Origin: Camelus dromedarius
Lineage: Eukaryota
Reading direction: 5' to 3'
Assembly (NCBI RefSeq): GCF_036321535.1
Contig: NC_087436.1
Span: forward strand, 43,216,001-43,280,000
DNA: 64,000 bases
In this document: piece after piece, positions 6,880-64,000 of the stretch
Numbering within the stretch: the stretch's first letter is position 1
How the letters are laid out: each line of letters starts with the position of its first letter
Translations under genes and position numbers: made by a program
The notes under the pieces: model-generated
What the model was told of the DNA's origin: nothing
Database searches by the model: none
What the model saw: only the letters and a program-made list of their open reading frames with translations

Positions 6880-7052
6880 CCTGCACATAGCTCTACTCTT
6901 TGTAATTATCTCCTTGTCTATCTTACCTACTTAAATTTTGAGCTTCTTGAAAATACAGACTGCAGATTATTTATCTTGAGAGTCCCTTAGTGACCAGAAC
7001 ACTGCCTGGCACATTGTAGTGACTCACTATGATAGTTGGAAGCATGAATGAA
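6880..7052 (+). mobile_element. L2 3' end
   Basis: gagcttcttga...ctgcctggcacattgtag...atgaatgaa. Confidence 0.6.
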
Positions 7053-8156
7053 TATAATCATGCAGACCTAGATGCTTTATGCTGGATCCTTATATATGAC
7101 TGACATTTGATTTTACAAGAAGGCCATTAAAAATTTCCGTCTCGGTAATCCATGGTCTTCATTAGTGATACGACAATTACTGACAAATTCTGTAGATGAG
7201 GTTATTTTATAGTTTGTGGAAGAAACTGTAGCATATCTGCCTATCTTCAGTTTGATACAGGCTTTTTATTGGTTATAACATGACTGGTCTGAAATTTTGT
7301 TATTTCCATTTAAATTTAAATCTGTTTCCTCAGCAAAACAATTATCTCTGCATTAGCCAGGACAAAACATTGCATTTTAAAGACAGAGCTCTACAACATT
7401 CACAGTATAAGTATGAGAATGAAAATAATGCAGATGATTTATTTCTCATCTTCATACATTTCTGATCTGAAGCCACCCTTTCGTGGTCTGTGGAGCCCAC
7501 CTCTAAAGACTGAGTTCATTCTATGTAAATTTTGAATGTGTGTGCTGGTTTTTGCTCCAAATGATTTCAATTAAACATTCAATTAAAATGTAATATAAGT
7601 TGAAAAATATTTGCTGTGTAGGCTGCCTTATTTTTCTCAGCTTACCCTAGTAACAGCATCAGTTGATGCAAACCATGTTCAAGGGGTGGGGAGATGAAAC
7701 AGAGAGAAAATGTAAGAAATGTCCCTTGTCTAAATGTTTGTTGTATTTAAGGATCCAAGGGTTGTTGCATTTCCCATTTCATAACTCTGTGTCATTATCT
7801 TCAATTTCTGTCTCATGATATTTTCTGGTAACCCAAAGAAAACCTCCAACATATCAGCTCATCACTTGGTTTTTATTTATATGGATAAGAGTTCTCCCCA
7901 TGGCTGGGCATATGGATGAAATGAGACAGGAAGTGTTAGATGTGCTGTGCCAGAGAGAACAATATGTTTGTTCACTGGTCCTTTGTAGATGGCCTCTCCC
8001 AACTCGTGCTTTCTAGATCACCTATAGTCCCAATTATAATCAACCAACACCAATGGTGAGTAATTCTTCTTACTAGTTTTGTCCAAGTGATAAAGATTGG
8101 AGAGTAAAAAGACTTATCTTGTATTGCTACTTGTGCTGATTTAAAAGATAATTTTA

Positions 8157-8289: not shown

Positions 8290-8456
8290 TCTAATATATA
8301 GCACAGGAAACTATATTCAATATCTTGTAATAACCTATAATGAAAAAGAATAGGAAAAGGAATATATACGTATATATGTGTGTATATGTATAACTGAATC
8401 ACTATGCTGTACACCAGAAACTAACACAACCTTGTAAATCAGCTATACTTCAATAA
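8157..8456 (+). mobile_element. 5'-truncated L1 3' end with internal (TA)n expansion (8235-8284)
   Basis: L1 3'UTR motifs; 14-bp TSD aaaagataatttta at 8143-8156 and 8457-8470 at a TT|AAAA site. Confidence 0.85.
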
Positions 8457-8860
8457 AAAAGATAATTTTATACATATTTTATAGCCATCTCAGAGTATCA
8501 TAGAAGTGTAAACTAATAGAATGCAAGATATATTCTCATTTACATATAATATTCTTATTTACATATAATACAGTAATATTCATATTTCCATCTGCACAGA
8601 GAATAGCAGGTAAAAACATAGGAAGAATGTGAAGTTATACATTTAATACTTCTCAATGCATATTTTTTGCATTAATCAATGCATATATTTTAAATTTTTA
8701 AACAGTTTAAAAAGTTTGATATATATTACTCATTCCTAGCACACAGACATTGAGCAACTAGAATATGCTTGGCTGATGCTCTGATTCCAGGAAGAAAAGA
8801 GACTATCAAAAAGATGTCTTAAAGAGTTTGCTGGACCCTGGCTTACCCATAATGACTCAC

Positions 8861-31352: not shown

Positions 31353-32033
31353 TATCCAACAAGGTCATATATGATCTGGCTACGGCCTCCCTTGGGAACT
31401 ATACCTCTTACCACGCTTACTCTGTACTGCTTCCTTTCTCTTTAGGAAAGAAATTCAGATCCTAGACAGTGTTTTCTTTTTTTTTTTTCTTCAAACTTTC
31501 TAGTCATATAACTCTCTTCAAATGCTATCTACCCTAGAAACTCTGAAAATAAAATATTAAGCATGGCTACTCTATTTGATGTTAAGTGAGTTATGACTGT
31601 TCAGCAATGTCTTCCTTACTTCCTAACTACCAGGACAATGGCTTGTAAACTGTTGTGTTCCAAGGAGGTACATCAGGGATCCTTCTACAAGAATGGTGAG
31701 TTTTGCGAGCTATCACTGTTGGAAAACACAAAGACGAGGCAGCCTAACATGGCAGTCATGTGTTACTTTCCTTTACGGTATTTTGCAACTAGAAAAGATA
31801 GAGTCTTTGCATTTGTAAGAAGTAATGTGTGAAGTAGGGAGGTTGTGTACATTTGCTTAAATGGAGCAATCTGTATCTAACAGAGTTTGAAAATTACAGC
31901 TTTAAATATTTATAATACCCTTCATTCCATATGCCATTTGCCAGTTAAAAAGAACATCACAAACAGTCTCTACATCTACCGGAAAACACATCAACAAATT
32001 ACTCAGCCAATTCCAACAGCAGAAAACGGCATG

Positions 32034-32625
32034 GAGGGGAGGAGCCAAGATGGCAGAGTAGAGCCTCAGCTCACCCTCTCCCACAAATACACCAAGACTT
32101 ACACCTACAAACCCACTGAACCCCACGGAACACTTACAGAACTCTAGCAAAGTGTCTCTCGCTTCGAAATACAGTAGGATTCTCACAAAACCTGGCAGGA
32201 CTGAGATTGGTTACGACCTCAGACAGAGAGGGTGTATTTGCTCTCTCTGGACCTTTCCTGGACTCGCGCCTCTGGAACAGGCAGCGAGCTGAGTTCTGGC
32301 GCCTTCGCTGGGGGCAGGGCGGGGGCAGGGCGGGGGCAGGGCGGGGGCGGGCATTCACAACAGGCCTGCGCACGCTGTCCGCGGAGGCGGGGCGGGGGTC
32401 TGCGCCCACGCTGTGGCGCACCACTGATAAAGATGAACCGCAAATTTATGCTATATAGCCCGGGGAACAGTATTCAATATCTTGTAGTATTGTGGTGAAA
32501 AAGAACATGAAAACGGATATATGTATGTTCACGTATGACTGAAACATTGTGCTGTACACCAGAAATTGACACAACACTGTAAACTGACTATAGTTGAATA
32601 AAATACATATATGGCAATTAAAAAA
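32034..32625 (+). mobile_element. Bipartite non-autonomous L1 derivative (L1 5'UTR ~400 nt joined to L1 3'UTR ~190 nt and an A tail)
   Basis: Begins gaggggaggagccaagatggc (L1 5' start) and ends in an L1 3'UTR (tatagc..ggaac..tattcaatatcttgta..tgtacaccagaaa..aataaaa). 13-bp TSD agaaaac(g/a)gcatg at 32021-32033 and 32626-32638. No ORF1 or ORF2. Confidence 0.85.
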
Positions 32626-35069
32626 AGAAAACAGCATGATTATAGATAGCTCTGTGTTTGCACTTAGGGAAAGCAGCATTCGCCTTTTGATGAAAACTTG
32701 TCTTTCGCAAGAAGGTCAGTGTCGAGATTTAGGTGTTTTCACAGAGCAGAATTCTTCAGGAGCCGTAGCTGTAACATGCCGGGAGGCCTCTGTCACACAC
32801 AGGTTAGCACTGGTTGAGAATTACTATTAAGCTTCTATCCCAGATACTATGTAGTGTCTCCTTTTGAATTAGCATTATGAAAGATAAGGTTGGGAAGCAT
32901 CCCAAAATTATCATGCAGTTTTAAAGTCAGGATGATTCAAATTATTTCCCTAAATATCTCGTAAATGTGCAGCTGCAAAGGATGTAAAAAACGAATGGGT
33001 ACTAATTGTAGTCACAAAAATAAGGACTACTTTGTGTACTCTGGGGGTATGCTTAGGCAAAAGAACAAAAGATATGCTTGTCCGCGTGCTCAGTAGTTAA
33101 AAAAACATTTTATTAATTAAACTGTCATACAAATTTTCTCAGATAATCTGAATATGACAATTCTTTCCTAGAGTTAGGATGTTACAAATTATCTTAACCA
33201 TCTTCTCTCCAAAGGTCCTCTTTAAAGGATTGTAGCTAGGCTTACAGCTAAACTATTAGATGATATTTAAATGATTAATGTACTAAATCTTTCTAAGAAG
33301 GTTAAATTTTATGGGGTGTTTACTATGTCCTCTTGTGTTATCCCCACCACTATGCTATTAGGGCCATTTAAGATGATGGCTCATAGTCACTTACCCAAGG
33401 GCACAGTGACAAGCGGTATGATCTGGGTCTGAACCCTGAAGGACTCCAAACTCAGAGCTCCTTCCACTCCCCTCAAACTGTCCCCTTCACCTGGGATCAA
33501 ACTGACCCAGAGAACAATCACACTTTTCTCTGGTAATCGAACACTTAGCCTTCTCCTAAGCCATTCACTTGAGATGACAGTATTGGAAATGTCAGGCCTT
33601 GCTGGATGAAGACTGTCGAAGTGCACTCTTAGGCACCAGAAGTCTTCCAGTTTTTATTTCCAGTGGTCAAGAAATTTAGGGTAGTGGTAGAAGAGAGAGA
33701 AGGCTGCACATTTTATATTTGTTATTTAACCCTACCAGCCCAGTGAAATAAGTAAGAAATCCCTATATGTCTCAAGGAAATTAACATTCACGGGGATTAA
33801 GAAGCATGCCTGAAGTTCCACCCCACTTACAGTGCAGAACTGAATTTGAACCCACACATAAACGAATTCTAGAGCTCATGTTCTTTCTACTACAATATTC
33901 TGTCATGTGTTTTAGCAGTAAATCTGACAACGTTTTGTCATGTCTGGCAATTGTCAACAATCAGAAACACCACTGAAAATGCATCCCCATTGGGTCTACC
34001 ATAATCACCGTTTTCACCTCCTCACGGATAAATTACCAAGAATTTATGTGGATAATTTTACGTATTTCACGGAACTTGCTCCAGTGCACCCTATACATCA
34101 ACCTGAACTAACCTTCCTAAAAGCTGTTTCAGCAAACTACTTTCCTACATTGATTGTCATCTTACCAACCATGATTAATGATCGGTTTTCACAGACCATG
34201 GCTAAAGATGAAGATCTTTTAGATCCTTTTCCCATTGTCGTATTAAGAACAAACCTTCAGTGTGAATTCTGATGTTTTTCCAGACCAGCTTGTCTTGCCA
34301 ATATTTCTACACTCACCAAGCTCAACTGTACCTCCTACCACTCTTGTAACTAATCTTCCTGTAGAAAGTCTTCTGTTTCAATTTCTACTCTGCAGACCTT
34401 ATCTCCTTTTCAAAGCTGGGCTCAGGTTGTCTATGAATTTTTCATTAACAGAATTTAGGCAATTTCAACCTTCCTCTCTAGATCTAGTCTGTTCCATACA
34501 ATTTAGTACCAAATCATCTACCATCTTCTGCTGTTTGCCTTTGTTTCTTGTGTGCTTGTTTTGACTTTGCATGCAGCCTGTCCATTTTTTAAAAGCAGCT
34601 TCCTGCCTGGCACTTGTTTAGAATCCTCCAAAGCAGTGAGAACTCTGCTGAGTACATAGTGAGCACCCAGTAAGCAGCTTCTGAATAACAACTTTACTCT
34701 CAGTTCCTGACAACTGTAGATAACTTAGATTTGACCTTTTCTCCCTTATTCAAGTTTAAAATTTAAATTTAACCAGTGACTTATCACTAGTTCATTCTAC
34801 AAAGGAGCTGAAGTGGTTGGTGGTATTTTATTTATTTTCACATGACTCCATAATGTTGAAAATATGTATCTCCATGTTTCACTTTATAAAAATGAACTGT
34901 TAAACTATGGCTGCATAATTTTATAGGTTATGTTCTTGGATTTGTAAACAAAAAATAAGTCAAATGAATTTTTAAATAACCATAGGTAAAGCAAATGAAT
35001 TTTAAAAGAAAGTAAATGAAATTTTTTAAATGAAGAAAGCAAATGAATTTTCAAAATGGAATGCCCAAG

Positions 35070-46699: not shown

Positions 46700-47191
46700 A
46701 ACTTTTTTGTTTGTTTTTCACTGATTATTTTTAATTAAAGTATAGTCAATTTACAATGTTGTGTTAGTTTCTGGTGTACAGCATAGTGATTCAGTTATAT
46801 ACACATATATTCCTTTTCCTATTCTTTTTCATTATATGCTATTACAAGATATTGAATATAGTTCCCTGTGCTGTACAGTAAGATCTCGTTGCTTATTTTA
46901 TATATAGTAGTTAGTATCTGTGAATCCTGAACTCCCATTTTATCCTTCCCCACCCCTTTCCATCCCTGGTAACCATAAGTTTTTTTTCTATGTAAGTCTA
47001 TTTCTGTTTTTAAATAAGTTTGTGTCATTTTTGTTGTTGTTGTTTTTAGATTTCATATACAAGTGATGCCATATGGCATTTTTCCCCCTATTTCTGGCTT
47101 ACTGCACTTAGTATGATAACCTCTAAGTCTATCCATGTTGCTGCAAATGGTATCATTTCATTCTTTTTTATGGGTGAGGGGTATTCCATTT

Positions 47192-50879: not shown

Positions 50880-51028
50880 CAGGTGGGGAGGGGTAATTAG
50901 ATTTATTTATTTATTTATTTACTTACTTACTTACTTACTTATTTATTTTTAAGTGGCAGTACTGGGGATTGAATCCAGGACTACATGCATGCTAAGCACA
51001 TACTCTACCACTGAGCTATACACTTCCC
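50880..51028 (-). mobile_element. tRNA-derived SINE (Vic-1-like, camelid type)
   Basis: Minus strand has A box tagctcagtggtagag, B box ggattcaatccc and a (TAAA/TAAG)n tail. Confidence 0.8.
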
Positions 51029-57762: not shown

Positions 57763-59484
57763 CTTTTATCTCTATGCAAAATATTTATTCAATCTTCAAA
57801 TTAAAATTATAGAAATTCATCTTAGCTTATTGTTTTAGACAATAAAAGACATAAGCCTGTATATATTTTTCAGATGGAATAAAGTGATATTTTCCCTCCT
57901 CCCAACGACTAATAAGGATGATAGTAACATCCTTTCATTTTAAAACCCATGTTAGTTTTAGAACATTTCAAAAAATTGTTTTTGTGACCATGTCTCAACA
58001 AAAAGCCTCTCCGTTTGTATTTGGAAAGTTTCAAATAGTGTCAATAAACTGTCTAGTACAAAAAAAAAAAAAAGAAAAAGAAAGAAAGAAAGAAAAGAAA
58101 AGAAAAGGAAAAAGATGTACACTGTATTTTTAAAGGCCTTTTGCCTTTTGGATTGTGTTTAGTAGGAAGCAGGCCGCTGGTGTATCTTGGGAGAGGTCAA
58201 ACGGTGCTGAGTAAGGGGAAAACGAGGTGGCTTTTCATTCCTGTGTGCATGCAACAAGCAGCAAAACAGCAAGTTACTCCAGGTAGCTGGGACTCAGCTG
58301 TGCTTTCTGCCAGCAGGAGATCCATTTAATGAATTTGGAAGATTTGGGACACTGGACCCTACGGGAGGATTTGAGCTTCCCTGCTGAGAACTCCCACTGA
58401 CCAGGCTCCCGTTACCTTTGAGGATTCCGGTACATTTCCAATTGTCCATGTAATTAGCTTTCCATAGTCTCATACAGCCATCATCGCCTGAGGATGCCAG
58501 CACTACACCTATTATATTCTAACTCACTCGCCAGACCTGAGAATTGTAATTATCAAACCGAGCCACTACGTGGATTTCAAATTTTGTCAGCCCACCAGAG
58601 GATGTAAGTTCTTTCCTGCCCACAGGCTTTAATGTAAAACTCCTCACATCTTTGGTTGCTATGGCTAGAATGTGGAAAGACCTTCCCAAGTTTGGAGCAA
58701 ATGCAATCTCATGTACAGGCTCTGTGACTGTCATAAGGGTTTCAGCTTTTGCATATTTCCTGGTGTTTTCACTAAATTTGAAAATCTGAACCTTGGCCAT
58801 TGCGTTTGGACTGCTGTCGTCACTTCCTACCGCGATCATGGCGGGTGAGCACCACAGCTTGAAGGGTTCCAAGAAATACAGCTGCAGCTCAGCTTGCTTG
58901 AGATCTTGTGCTGCAGAGACCACTGGCTAAGGTTCGTGACATCTGGTGCCTCATACACCCTCACGATACCATCTGCTGAGCAGGTCGCTAACATGAAGCC
59001 CATGTGCTTAGGAGCGAATTTCACATTGGTAATGGACATTCTACTGTCCACTAGAGTTGTCCTCTTCACCCAGTGGCTCCGTCCTCATAGTTTGTCATTC
59101 GACTCTCATAGTGTTTCTTCCCATACGGCAGCTGTTCGGTCAAAAGAACAGGAGGCCAAAACCTGTCCAAATTCAGGATGGGGCCATGTCACACGCCACA
59201 CAGATCCACTATGTGTCTTCCAGCTAGCCGCGCAATGCCAGTCCCCACTTTCACCGCAGACCTTGACTGCTCTGGTGGCTGGAGCAGGTGGCCACTCGCC
59301 GCCCGTGGAAAACGAAAGACACACCGTAGATGAAGTCCTTGCAGACCGCCGCGATGCTGCGTGCCACAAACTGGCTGCGCCGGGCTCATTCTGCCTCCGA
59401 GAGGGCGGCGCGGGGCGCGTGGACCGCAGCCACCGGGAGTGGCACCGGGGCGCGAACGGTGGTGCTTCCCGCTTGCTGCCCCGC
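57763..59484 (-). pseudogene. SEH1L: Processed pseudogene of SEH1L (nucleoporin/GATOR2 WD40 protein; isoform ending GRKHS) with 5'UTR, CDS ~58294-59372 and 3'UTR
   Basis: Intronless FVARSIAA...[35 protein letters not shown]...[13 protein letters not shown]...GRKHS. ATG is reduced to AG (59371-72); frameshifts near 59268 and 58840; stops at 59106-08, 59085-87 and 58519-21; AATAAA at 57784-89 on minus; TSD caaaaataaagtaat at 57748-57762 and 59485-59499. Confidence 0.95.
58060..58113. repeat. A-run and (AAAAG)n repeat inside the SEH1L pseudogene 3'UTR
   Basis: Directly visible. Confidence 0.9.
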
Positions 59485-62400
59485 CAAAAATAAAGTAATA
59501 TTTGTTTTTCTTTATAAAACTTGGTCCTGGTTTCTCACCAACATAGTTGTATTATTAATACACGCATGTTGTGGTTTCTATATATTTACTGGTACAACGT
59601 GGTAAGTATTAAAGCATTTTTTAAATTTATTATTAGGTACATTCCTAGAGAATTTAACAAATGAATCAACAATATAATGAAACTTGAAAAAGATGGAGCT
59701 TTATGACACCTGCATTCTATCAGCATGCAAATGATGTTAATGGTGTTGACTATACACAAATGATTCAACAAAGAAAAATTAATCTTCACTCCCTTTACTA
59801 GACCAAGGAAAGTGCTACATTTTAAAGTCGTCTTCTGAGCCAATTACTCCACACCCAGTCTCTTTGGTAACAGGAAGTATTTAATTTAAGTAGATGTAAT
59901 CTACTTCACAAACAGTAAACTCATTCTAACAGTCAAGTATGACCATAGGGTAGGAATTTTTAAGAGGCTAACTAAACTTTCCTGGTATCTTTTTTATTTT
60001 ACACATTCTTCAGCATGACCTCTATCAGTTTTCCTAATTTGTTTACAGGAAGAAATCTTTTACTCTGTCTCATGAGCCATTACTTAAAATGCTTTTGGAG
60101 TGTGGATCTATTACTTCAGTCAGTAAGAATCAAATGTTCCAATCATTGGGAATTGTCTAAATGGCATAGCAAATTAACACTTAAAGAATTTTGCATTTTG
60201 AAGTGTTTATTGCAAGAAGTTGCCTTTCCTTTTCCTCAATTCCTATCTCTGACTCCATCTGAGATTTCAGAACCTGAGAGTCCGAAGGGACCCTGAAGAC
60301 CACCTAGTCCAGTGATTTCTTCACCTAGCTCTCAGCCCCAGGCTTGACACATAGTATCTACTCTATAAATACTGTTGGATGAGTGAATGAATATAAAGAG
60401 AGCATAACAGAATATCTTGATAAAGATTATGTTTGTAAATAATCAACACAATGTAATATATTTGAGAGAAAAAGATTGAGTAGTCCCTGGAATTTATAAG
60501 CTATTTTTTAGTATTTTTGTCAAAATGGGAATAAAGATACATGGTTTGGAGCTATTTTTTCCAGGTGCCTAGGGAACAACTGGATTTATTCTGCCCAGGA
60601 ATTGTTATCTTCTTTCTAAAATATGATGCCATATAATTATTAGTAAATTCTGACTTAAGGGACAAACAGTTATCTTGCTCAAATAACAAAATCTCTCCAT
60701 GTGTGACTTTCTGTATGGATCCATTTTTTATGAAGTTCCTCTCCAAGACTGGAGGAATAGGGAATCATTTTATTTGTTCTTCTGCAATTCTCTATCTTTC
60801 AGTTAAAAAAAAAATTCCTTTCTGGTGACTTTTATACTCCATTAGAATTTTCCCATTGGATCACTTTTACTTTTTAGAAATTATTTGATCTTATGTCAAT
60901 GTATATTTAACTTTAAAAAAAAGTGTAATCTGTAAATTGAAACTGCCAGCTGAGGAAACATGGAGGATTTCCCACCTTAAGCTTTCTGGAGCCCTTTAAC
61001 CACCCCAAACAGATCAGATCTTCCTGGACTAAGCCCATGGCTTCTGAGCTGTAATCAGCTGAAGGATGAGGAGGAAAAGGAACAGAAGAAGAAAGCATTT
61101 CTTCAATATTTGTTGGTGACTTCTCTCCTAGTTTCTTAATTTCCCAGTATTTCCCAGTATCACAACTTCCTTTCCTGTCATGGAAATATTTTACTATGTA
61201 AATCCACAAATAATATATATCAGGGCTTTTTTGCAGCTCCACACTCCACCCTTCCCCTGCTAACCCAGGCCAGATGAACTGGAAAAATGTCTCCCCTATT
61301 GCCAATTACTCTAAGGTACAGTAAACTGAATCTGGTTTTCACTTATCTCTAAAATGCTATAACATGGGCAGCATGTGGGATAAATCTACAGGGAATCTTG
61401 TTTACATTTTTAATAAAGGGTCAAGCATTATTAACTAATCATCAATCCATTATTTAAAACAAGTCCTCTGCACTGGCTTGAAAATGATCTCAAGAGTGCG
61501 TTCTGAATGTAACTTTCTACAAATTTAAAATAGAAAGGTTTGAGAATTAAGATTTTTAAAAGGTGTACATTTTTCTTTGATTCCACGAGTGACCAATTTT
61601 CTGAAGTTGGAGTTTTACAATACTCTTCTCAGCCTCCCCTCTGAGAGATAGCCCTCCTCTCCCGCTACAGCATTAGCTCAGTTGCAAGCTTTAACTTGCT
61701 GTGACCAGACTACTAGAATGCTAAACTTCCTATTTTTATTTCTCAATAAATATGGATACAATGTTTTTAAAATTAAAGTTAACAAGACACCATCTCAAAT
61801 AGAATATAGTTGACATAATCTAAAAGCTTATGAAATTGAAATAAATATTTAAATTAAACAGTTTCAGGAGAGGTTATCCTAAGGAGCCCTCTGATGTCAA
61901 ACTGTTTATCTTAGTTTACCCCACAGAGCTTTCTTTTCATGATTTCAAAATGTAGCTGACCTCAGTTTAATACAAACCCACAAAACAAAAAACAAAAAAC
62001 ATTCAAATCCACAAAACAGGATAGAGTATTTTTTTCAATAACTGGCCAGCTTTCTTCTCAATTAATTACAAGGCTGAGGCTCTAAATTAAAAGAATTTTA
62101 TGAGAATAAAGTACCTATTGGTGGGACACAACGATCCCACTACAAACCACTACAATATAGTTGCATTTTATTTAAAAAATCACCAAGAATATAATTAAAA
62201 ATTTCTATATGAGGGATTAGTTCAGAAACTAAACCATGCATAATATGTAAGTCAAATTCAGGACATACATGTGTCTTCAATTTCTGTAACACTGCCTACT
62301 AAAATTAGAGTGGTTATAAAGACACAGATGATGGTTGAAATTCTAATTATAAATGTTCTAAATTTTTAATCTGCCCTCTTTTAAAATGCAATCCAATCGG

Positions 62401-63562: not shown

Positions 63563-63692
63563 TTTTTTGGTGGAGGGAGGCAATTAGGTTTATTAATTTA
63601 TTATTTTTTTTTTTTAATGTAGGTACTGGGGATTGAACCCAGGATCTTGTACATGCTAAGCACACACTCTACCACTGAGCTATATCCTTCCC
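63563..63692 (-). mobile_element. tRNA-derived SINE (Vic-1-like, camelid type)
   Basis: Same structure as the 50.9 kb copy (tagctcagtggtagag...gggttcaatccccagtac); flanked by tttcattttt(ttt)aaat direct repeats. Confidence 0.8.
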
Positions 63693-63697
63693 TTTCA

Positions 63698-64000
63698 TTT
63701 TTTTTAAATTTAAGTAGAGTTGATTTACAGTGTTGAGTTAGTTTCTGGTGTACAGCATAGTGACTCAGTTATACATACATATATGTATTCTTTTTCATAT
63801 TCTTTTTCATTATACATTATTATAAGCTACTGAATATAGTTCCCTGTGCTATACAGTAGGACCTTGCTGTTTATCCGGTTTTGTGGAGTTTTTTTTGTAG
63901 CTTTGCTGTATAAGATCTTCTGCCAGAGTTCAGCAGGTATTCTGTGAGAATTTTTCCACATGTCAATATATTTTTGATGTATTTGTGGGAGGAGATGAGC
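63698..64000 (-). mobile_element. Second bipartite L1 derivative (5'UTR start joined to 3'UTR end), cut by the window edge
   Basis: Minus strand reads gctcatctcctcccacaaatacatcaaaa...cacaaaaccgg|ataaacagcaaggtcctactgtatagcacagggaac...A tail. The 5' part is similar to 32070-32195. Confidence 0.8.

Follow-up and report, generated by a model that had tools for sequence, protein, structure and literature searches.

Within a 64,000-nt stretch of the dromedary genome (Camelus dromedarius, NC_087436.1, 43,216,001 to 43,280,000), referred to here as the window, one insert consists of the 5′ end and the 3′ end of an L1 element without its coding part. We were interested in how such an element arose, and whether it copies itself. 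A preliminary description of the window had read it as an L1 RNA spliced from the 5′UTR to the 3′UTR, reinserted in trans and acting in effect as a Pol II SINE.

Anatomy of the insert and splice signals of its parents

The insert was measured at 592 bp, close to the ~590 bp first given, and is flanked by a 13-bp target site duplication (TSD) with 12 of 13 letters identical (92%), the mismatch lying at a CpG. With the same scoring, a TSD score of at least 10 was reached by 19 of 35 sister copies and by 5 of 150 pairs of mismatched flanks. The window copy itself scores 10, and the TSDs of the insert and its sisters are more than chance. The loss of both ORFs was confirmed, since the longest ATG frames have 21 codons (+) and 47 codons (-) and blastn found nothing in the insert that matches the ORF region of a full-length L1. 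At the 3′ end the polyadenylation signal stands as described, and the A tail is reduced to 6–7 A after an AT-rich stretch. No Rfam match was found within the insert and its head is L1 5′UTR, so it is not a SINE with a small-RNA head and a Pol III promoter. The coordinates are collected in Table 1.

Table 1. Parts of the two presumably spliced L1 copies, numbered from the first letter of the window
Feature	Position	Strand	Remark
Left TSD, 13 bp	32021..32033	+	direct-repeat call, TSD scoring
Exon 1, first 161 nt of the L1 5′UTR	32034..32194	+	unspliced copies continue with GT (mostly GTAAG); CAAGATGGC at 32046
Exon 2, internal 5′UTR segment, 238 nt	32195..32432	+	~+743 to +958 of the parent
11-bp G-rich unit, copy-specific expansion, three copies plus	32310..32351	+	absent in 16/16 parents
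Exon 3, last part of the L1 3′UTR	32433..32625	+	AATAAA at 32597-32602, short A-rich tail
Right TSD	32626..32638	+	direct-repeat call
Second spliced L1 copy (L163), older lineage	63697..64000 (element to 64036)	-	exon 1 of 162 nt; 36 nt lie beyond the window end

Comparison with a full-length 7-kb L1 of the same genome divided the insert into three parts, namely 5′UTR exon 1, internal 5′UTR exon 2 and the end of the 3′UTR. The switch into the 3′UTR at 32432|32433 lies where it had been placed. The 5′ part, taken at first for a single piece, maps to two separate places in the parent, so ~577 nt are also missing at 32194|32195, a junction that had been overlooked. This parent (L102) is a natural full-length L1 of 7.05 kb between its own 9-letter repeats (TSD), and it holds all three segments in order on the minus strand (184-345, 924-1037 and 7020-7222). 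Between the segments lie ORF1 (Transposase_22, E 4e-13) and a reverse transcriptase (RVT_1, E 3e-17); the endonuclease domain (Exo_endo_phos) was found in the sister copy L088, and the Pfam profile search gave nothing in two of the five L1 fragments. At loci with a normal 5′UTR, element positions 14-175 and 174-415 match ~580 nt apart. The motif in exon 1 listed in Table 1 is presumably a YY1-type site.

The parental L1s were read for splice signals. GT follows exon 1 in 15 of 16 unspliced 5′UTRs, and AG precedes exon 2 in 10 of the 16. Exon 2 is followed by GT in 7, by GC in 2 and by other or decayed letters in 7 of the same 16, a pattern which suggests an ancestral CpG at this donor. The acceptor before exon 3 reads YAG in 22 of 29 unfused 3′UTRs, and 12 of those 22 carry a TACTAAC branch point with the branch A 19–27 nt from the splice site; the pyrimidine tract is missing there. 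These 29 3′UTRs are the best matches to the window copy, which biases any exon 3 comparison of fused with unfused copies, and the columns that differ were not used as diagnostics. By these counts both gaps are bounded by a GT donor and an AG acceptor in the parent L1. The expected GT/AG at 32432|32433 was borne out on the acceptor side and only partly at the donor.

The first junction is exactly in GT/AG register with the parents. The second is the weaker of the two: exon 2 departs from the parents at three of its last 11 letters (a chance of 0.09 if divergence is 10%), and blastn can extend the 3′UTR 2–6 letters leftward across it. The three-exon isoform may be rare because the second donor was a weak GC site, or because GT arose there only in aged source copies; either would explain it.

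Several other L1 copies with an intact 5′UTR were incomplete. L087 (~2970), L088 (~3800) and L089 (~1820) all stop within ORF1 or the endonuclease domain or shortly past them, and among 12 further such L1s one (L102) had a matching 3′ end at the expected distance. Premature polyadenylation and later rearrangement are candidate causes. In L063 the 5′UTR is apparently joined early to ORF1-like sequence ~1160 nt from the 5′ end, possibly a 5′UTR/ORF1 splice of the human SpIRE type.

Copy number and recurrence of the join

The assembly searched comprises 2.3 Gb in 171 contigs. Genome-wide DNA and pattern searches found both window junctions as single copies. The DNA search across the second junction gave five matches, four of them 5′UTR only, and no further three-exon copy; the patterns for the first junction matched the window alone. 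For the second, 32 matches stood against 9 in the control, and except for the window they were read from the listed letters as chance or other joins. The junction first described, at 32432|32433, is thus unique; a different donor, 238 window bases upstream, serves the multi-copy family.

In that family exon 1 is joined directly to exon 3 (fused copies), as was seen at 15 of the 29 non-self loci that exon 1 retrieved. For the exon 1-exon 3 junction, 174 matches with at most 3 mismatches were obtained, and none in the reversed control. The unspliced donor gave 287, with a slightly looser pattern and some unrelated repeats among the rows, and the unspliced 3′UTR acceptor 23,340, so that fused copies make up ~0.7% of acceptor-bearing 3′ ends. 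Among the first 100 of 196 exact exon-1 ends, counted by hand, 62 continue into exon 3, 38 into the intron and none elsewhere; these rows come from contigs C1-C15 and their last letter is not G, which gives a slight bias toward fused rows. Individually checked were the loci of 58 of the 62 fused rows and of 20 newly fetched among the 38 unspliced rows.

The first 35 fused copies are all 325–338 nt long and begin at the L1 5′ end. Of 40 further copies, 36 also extend to both ends, which brings the count to 71 of 75 fused loci. It is this exon 1-exon 3 form that consists of the 5′ and 3′ ends only, lacks ORFs and is multi-copy, whereas the window isoform itself is single-copy and tripartite. The non-CpG distance between copies is ~11%, which points to activity ~25–30 million years ago at the mammalian rate that we assume, and no young copy was seen among the copies compared.

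Deletion of DNA after insertion of a full-length L1 would suit an isoform that is single-copy and old, and it was considered for the window copy. Two deletions would be needed, both falling on GT..AG (rough chance 5e-5 with register slack, assuming GT at the second donor), and one of them would have to hit the acceptor that at least 174 independent insertions share, which makes this origin scarcely credible.

The copy at the window's right end (L163) belongs to an older lineage. Its exon 1 is identical to exon 1 of the first type at 108 of 166 positions and is joined at 63875|63874 to the same 3′UTR acceptor position. With this copy as query, 36 of 40 scored matches (of 1315 candidates, itself included) span the junction, and all six fused copies of the lineage that were fetched join the same acceptor position. 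Among four unspliced copies, the homologous donor reads G|GTAGG in two and is decayed in two. The older lineage made the same join independently, and therefore the splice recurred in two L1 generations. The 3′ flank of L163 contains a tRNA-headed SINE at 63604-63692 (Rfam tRNA at 63620-63688), and another at 50939-51028 (-) is 82% like it. Ordinary 5′-truncated L1 3′ ends of the same broad lineage lie at 8291-8464 (+) and 46725-46896 (-), the latter with TACTAAC kept upstream.

L1 has a cis preference, and a template jump in cis would agree with it: ORF2p would copy the terminal 190 nt of the RNA that encodes it and then jump to the 5′UTR at a short homology, with neither splicing nor a trans step. 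G.TAA is indeed common to the donor and the start of exon 3, G stands at +1 in 5 of the 62 fused rows, and a few rows are without 8–14 letters of the exon 3 start. A G at +1, however, also occurs in the unfused 3′UTRs (1/29). Moreover, two lineages whose donor flanks differ both show the join in GT/AG register, with a textbook branch point in front of it, and the first window junction uses a different acceptor, again in GT/AG register. We consider such a jump improbable as the source of the fused copies.

Self-copying family or repeated splicing

The fused copies could also descend from a few spliced copies that kept the exon-1 promoter and became masters of a self-propagating 330-nt Pol II family, of which the window copy would be a side product. 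The copy number of at least 174 speaks for this, as does the share of fused copies among intact 5′ ends, which is about half (15/29; 62/100; 174 vs 287), against ~2% for human SpIREs (131 of 6,609 full-length L1s in the accessible part of Larson et al. 2018, PMC5860796), a comparison that needs care because a 330-nt RNA nearly always inserts whole. Shortness alone explains the excess: spliced copies rival or outnumber intact full-length 5′ ends because the short RNA nearly always inserts complete.

The exon-1 alignment was then searched for marks of such masters. Over 157 columns, no fixed difference separated 75 fused from 36 unspliced copies. Among the fused copies, two haplotypes show linkage between exon 1 and exon 3 (p 3.5e-5; 8.7e-9), and the same exon-1 haplotypes are linked in unspliced 5′UTRs (p 0.009). 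Both 3′ haplotypes are present in unfused 3′UTRs, and L102 has one haplotype at both ends. Rare alleles were shared within a class at 0.555, compared with 0.559 +/- 0.028 after label shuffling, in a set whose four 5′-truncated fused rows and few truncated unspliced rows add flank noise. Pairs sharing at least four rare alleles numbered 12 against 9.8 +/- 3.4 simulated, in a test that is blind to masters without private changes, and none of 2775 fused pairs was nearer than 3%. By AU tests, a single clade of fused copies could not be rejected (p values of 0.10 and 0.18, with 137 and 150 columns), the exon 1 and exon 3 trees being too short to decide monophyly.

One pair of fused copies, L082 and L083 (G000:C19, 2.3 Mb apart), shares five rare alleles, and a motif with two of these alleles has exactly two matches, both fused copies. 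The pair is a candidate for source and daughter, for a common source locus or for gene conversion. The unrejected clade and this pair would suit a self-copying family, but the two copies still differ by 8%, and the second lineage made its join independently. With neither a fixed diagnostic site nor an excess of shared rare alleles, the description as in effect a Pol II SINE is not upheld, and self-propagation appears unlikely. The fused copies mirror the parental subfamily mix without an excess of private mutations, and therefore look like products of repeated splicing and trans-mobilisation.

This reading, that repeated splicing of L1 RNA and trans-mobilisation made the fused copies, is the one we hold to be probable. 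Full-length L1 transcripts would be spliced from a strong donor at ~+165 of the 5′UTR to an acceptor ~190 nt before the poly(A) tail, which would remove a 6.7-kb intron carrying both ORFs. The resulting 330-nt polyadenylated non-coding RNA would be reverse-transcribed, like a processed pseudogene, by ORF2p from other L1 RNAs; splicing precedes translation, and an ORF-less RNA would have to borrow the enzyme. Several L1 subfamilies, and two or more successive L1 lineages, would have fed this process repeatedly. The window copy would be a rare isoform of the same process, in which the 238-nt 5′UTR cassette exon was kept and introns of 0.58 and 5.9 kb were removed. From the anatomy, the collinearity with one parent, the splice signals, the copy numbers and the subfamily mixture, we infer that the RNA was spliced, was mobilised in trans and probably gave copies that did not copy themselves further. 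The insertion of a spliced L1 RNA in trans by the L1 machinery, as first proposed, agrees with the splice signals of the parents and the loss of both ORFs.

Given the cis preference, 0.7% of 3′ ends is high for a trans-mobilised RNA unless the spliced RNA is abundant. According to the consulted sections of two papers, L1 mobilises mRNAs and SINEs in trans (PMC5860796), and human tissues including testis can contain more spliced than full-length L1 RNA (PMC2896524). Such abundance could offset the cis preference.

Relation to known elements and CpG richness of the window copy

The insert and its sisters appear to be a new, ORF-less variant of SpIREs. In the available sections of PMC5860796, SpIREs are likewise retrotransposed spliced L1 RNAs with a 5′UTR donor and TPRT hallmarks, from several L1 subfamilies, and SpIRE97/622 has an intra-5′UTR splice like the first window junction. 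Human SpIREs described there splice within the 5′UTR or into ORF1, whereas the camel fused copies use a 3′UTR acceptor and have lost both ORFs; the window copy is doubly spliced. A TSD and an A-rich tail, as in SpIREs, were found, but not a splice within the 5′UTR or from 5′UTR to ORF1 with ORF2 retained. The same sections report that human SpIREs lose most of their promoter activity. A survey of human L1 chimeras (10.1101/2025.02.02.635956) describes one SpIRE revived by a host promoter and, in the part available, no element of the present shape.

Among ORF-less bipartite LINEs, RIME, NARTc, Bov-A and RTESINE likewise consist of the 5′ and 3′ ends only, measure ~330 nt and have many copies (Kojima 2018, PMC5786205). 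The portions of that survey at hand report such elements only from RTE, Ingi, Vingi and R2 and ascribe them to internal deletion; the fused copies differ from them in coming from L1, probably by splicing, and in showing no sign of masters of their own. The string "splic" occurs 0 times in that paper, and 0 times in the main text of a camelid repeat survey (PMC8605555). HAL1 is also a non-autonomous L1 derivative with both UTRs, but it retains ORF1 according to the portions of PMC5786205 at hand, whereas the insert has no ORF. Processed pseudogenes are likewise spliced, polyadenylated Pol II RNAs inserted in trans by L1 with a TSD; they derive from a host gene, and the fused copies from L1 itself at many loci. 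Listings and abstract beginnings of the open literature searched gave no description of the fused family, which may already be present in a repeat library such as Dfam or Repbase under a different name.

The fused copies preserve, as a natural record that can be counted, how L1 was spliced and how cis preference leaked during tens of millions of years. They extend ORF-less bipartite LINE derivatives to L1, which the consulted portions of the 2018 survey (PMC5786205) do not list, by a route not mentioned there. Counts of "full-length" L1s by 5′ ends in the camel genome are inflated about twofold. Two questions become testable. One is whether L1 splicing is a restriction from which L1 cannot free itself, since its donor overlaps the promoter; the other is whether L1 RNA needs no more than its 5′ and 3′ ends for efficient trans mobilisation.

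The window copy is rich in CpG. Its exon 2 has 19 CpG (o/e 0.72, GC 0.68), whereas 15 of 16 parents keep 0–8 in this region; the remaining one, L053 (G000:C11:5.567 Mb), an unspliced 5′UTR which also retained its CpGs, keeps 18. Five GGGCGG boxes are present, against 0–1 in the parents, four of the five lying within the G-rich expansion. At other sites the window copy is more diverged than its sisters (0.075 and 0.108 vs 0.050 and 0.072). The CpG retention would fit lasting germline hypomethylation and perhaps promoter use. Parts of 31700-33000 were present in 20 of 24 listed sequencing runs, two recorded as RNA (shares 0.21–0.23) and four guessed to be RNA of another organism (0.55–0.71); these shares are no evidence of expression or conservation.

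A bolder interpretation, which we regard as doubtful though worth stating, is that the lineage kept a functional 6.7-kb intron over both ORFs for at least two 5′UTR generations and so made a 330-nt subgenomic RNA in abundance, which ORF2p mobilised with much greater efficiency than ordinary mRNA. The fused copies would then be the first ORF-less bipartite L1 family, made by splicing, and either a decoy limiting L1 or a Pol II proto-SINE, some of whose copies were masters; the CpG-rich window copy with its added GC boxes might serve as a host promoter.

Elsewhere in the window, 58519-59534 (-) contains intronless, broken WD40-repeat frames with a CpG-rich 5′ end (59001-59600), the Pfam WD40 match (E 1.4e-4) lying below the cut-off. 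It looks like a processed pseudogene, which we take to be one of the nucleoporin SEH1L.
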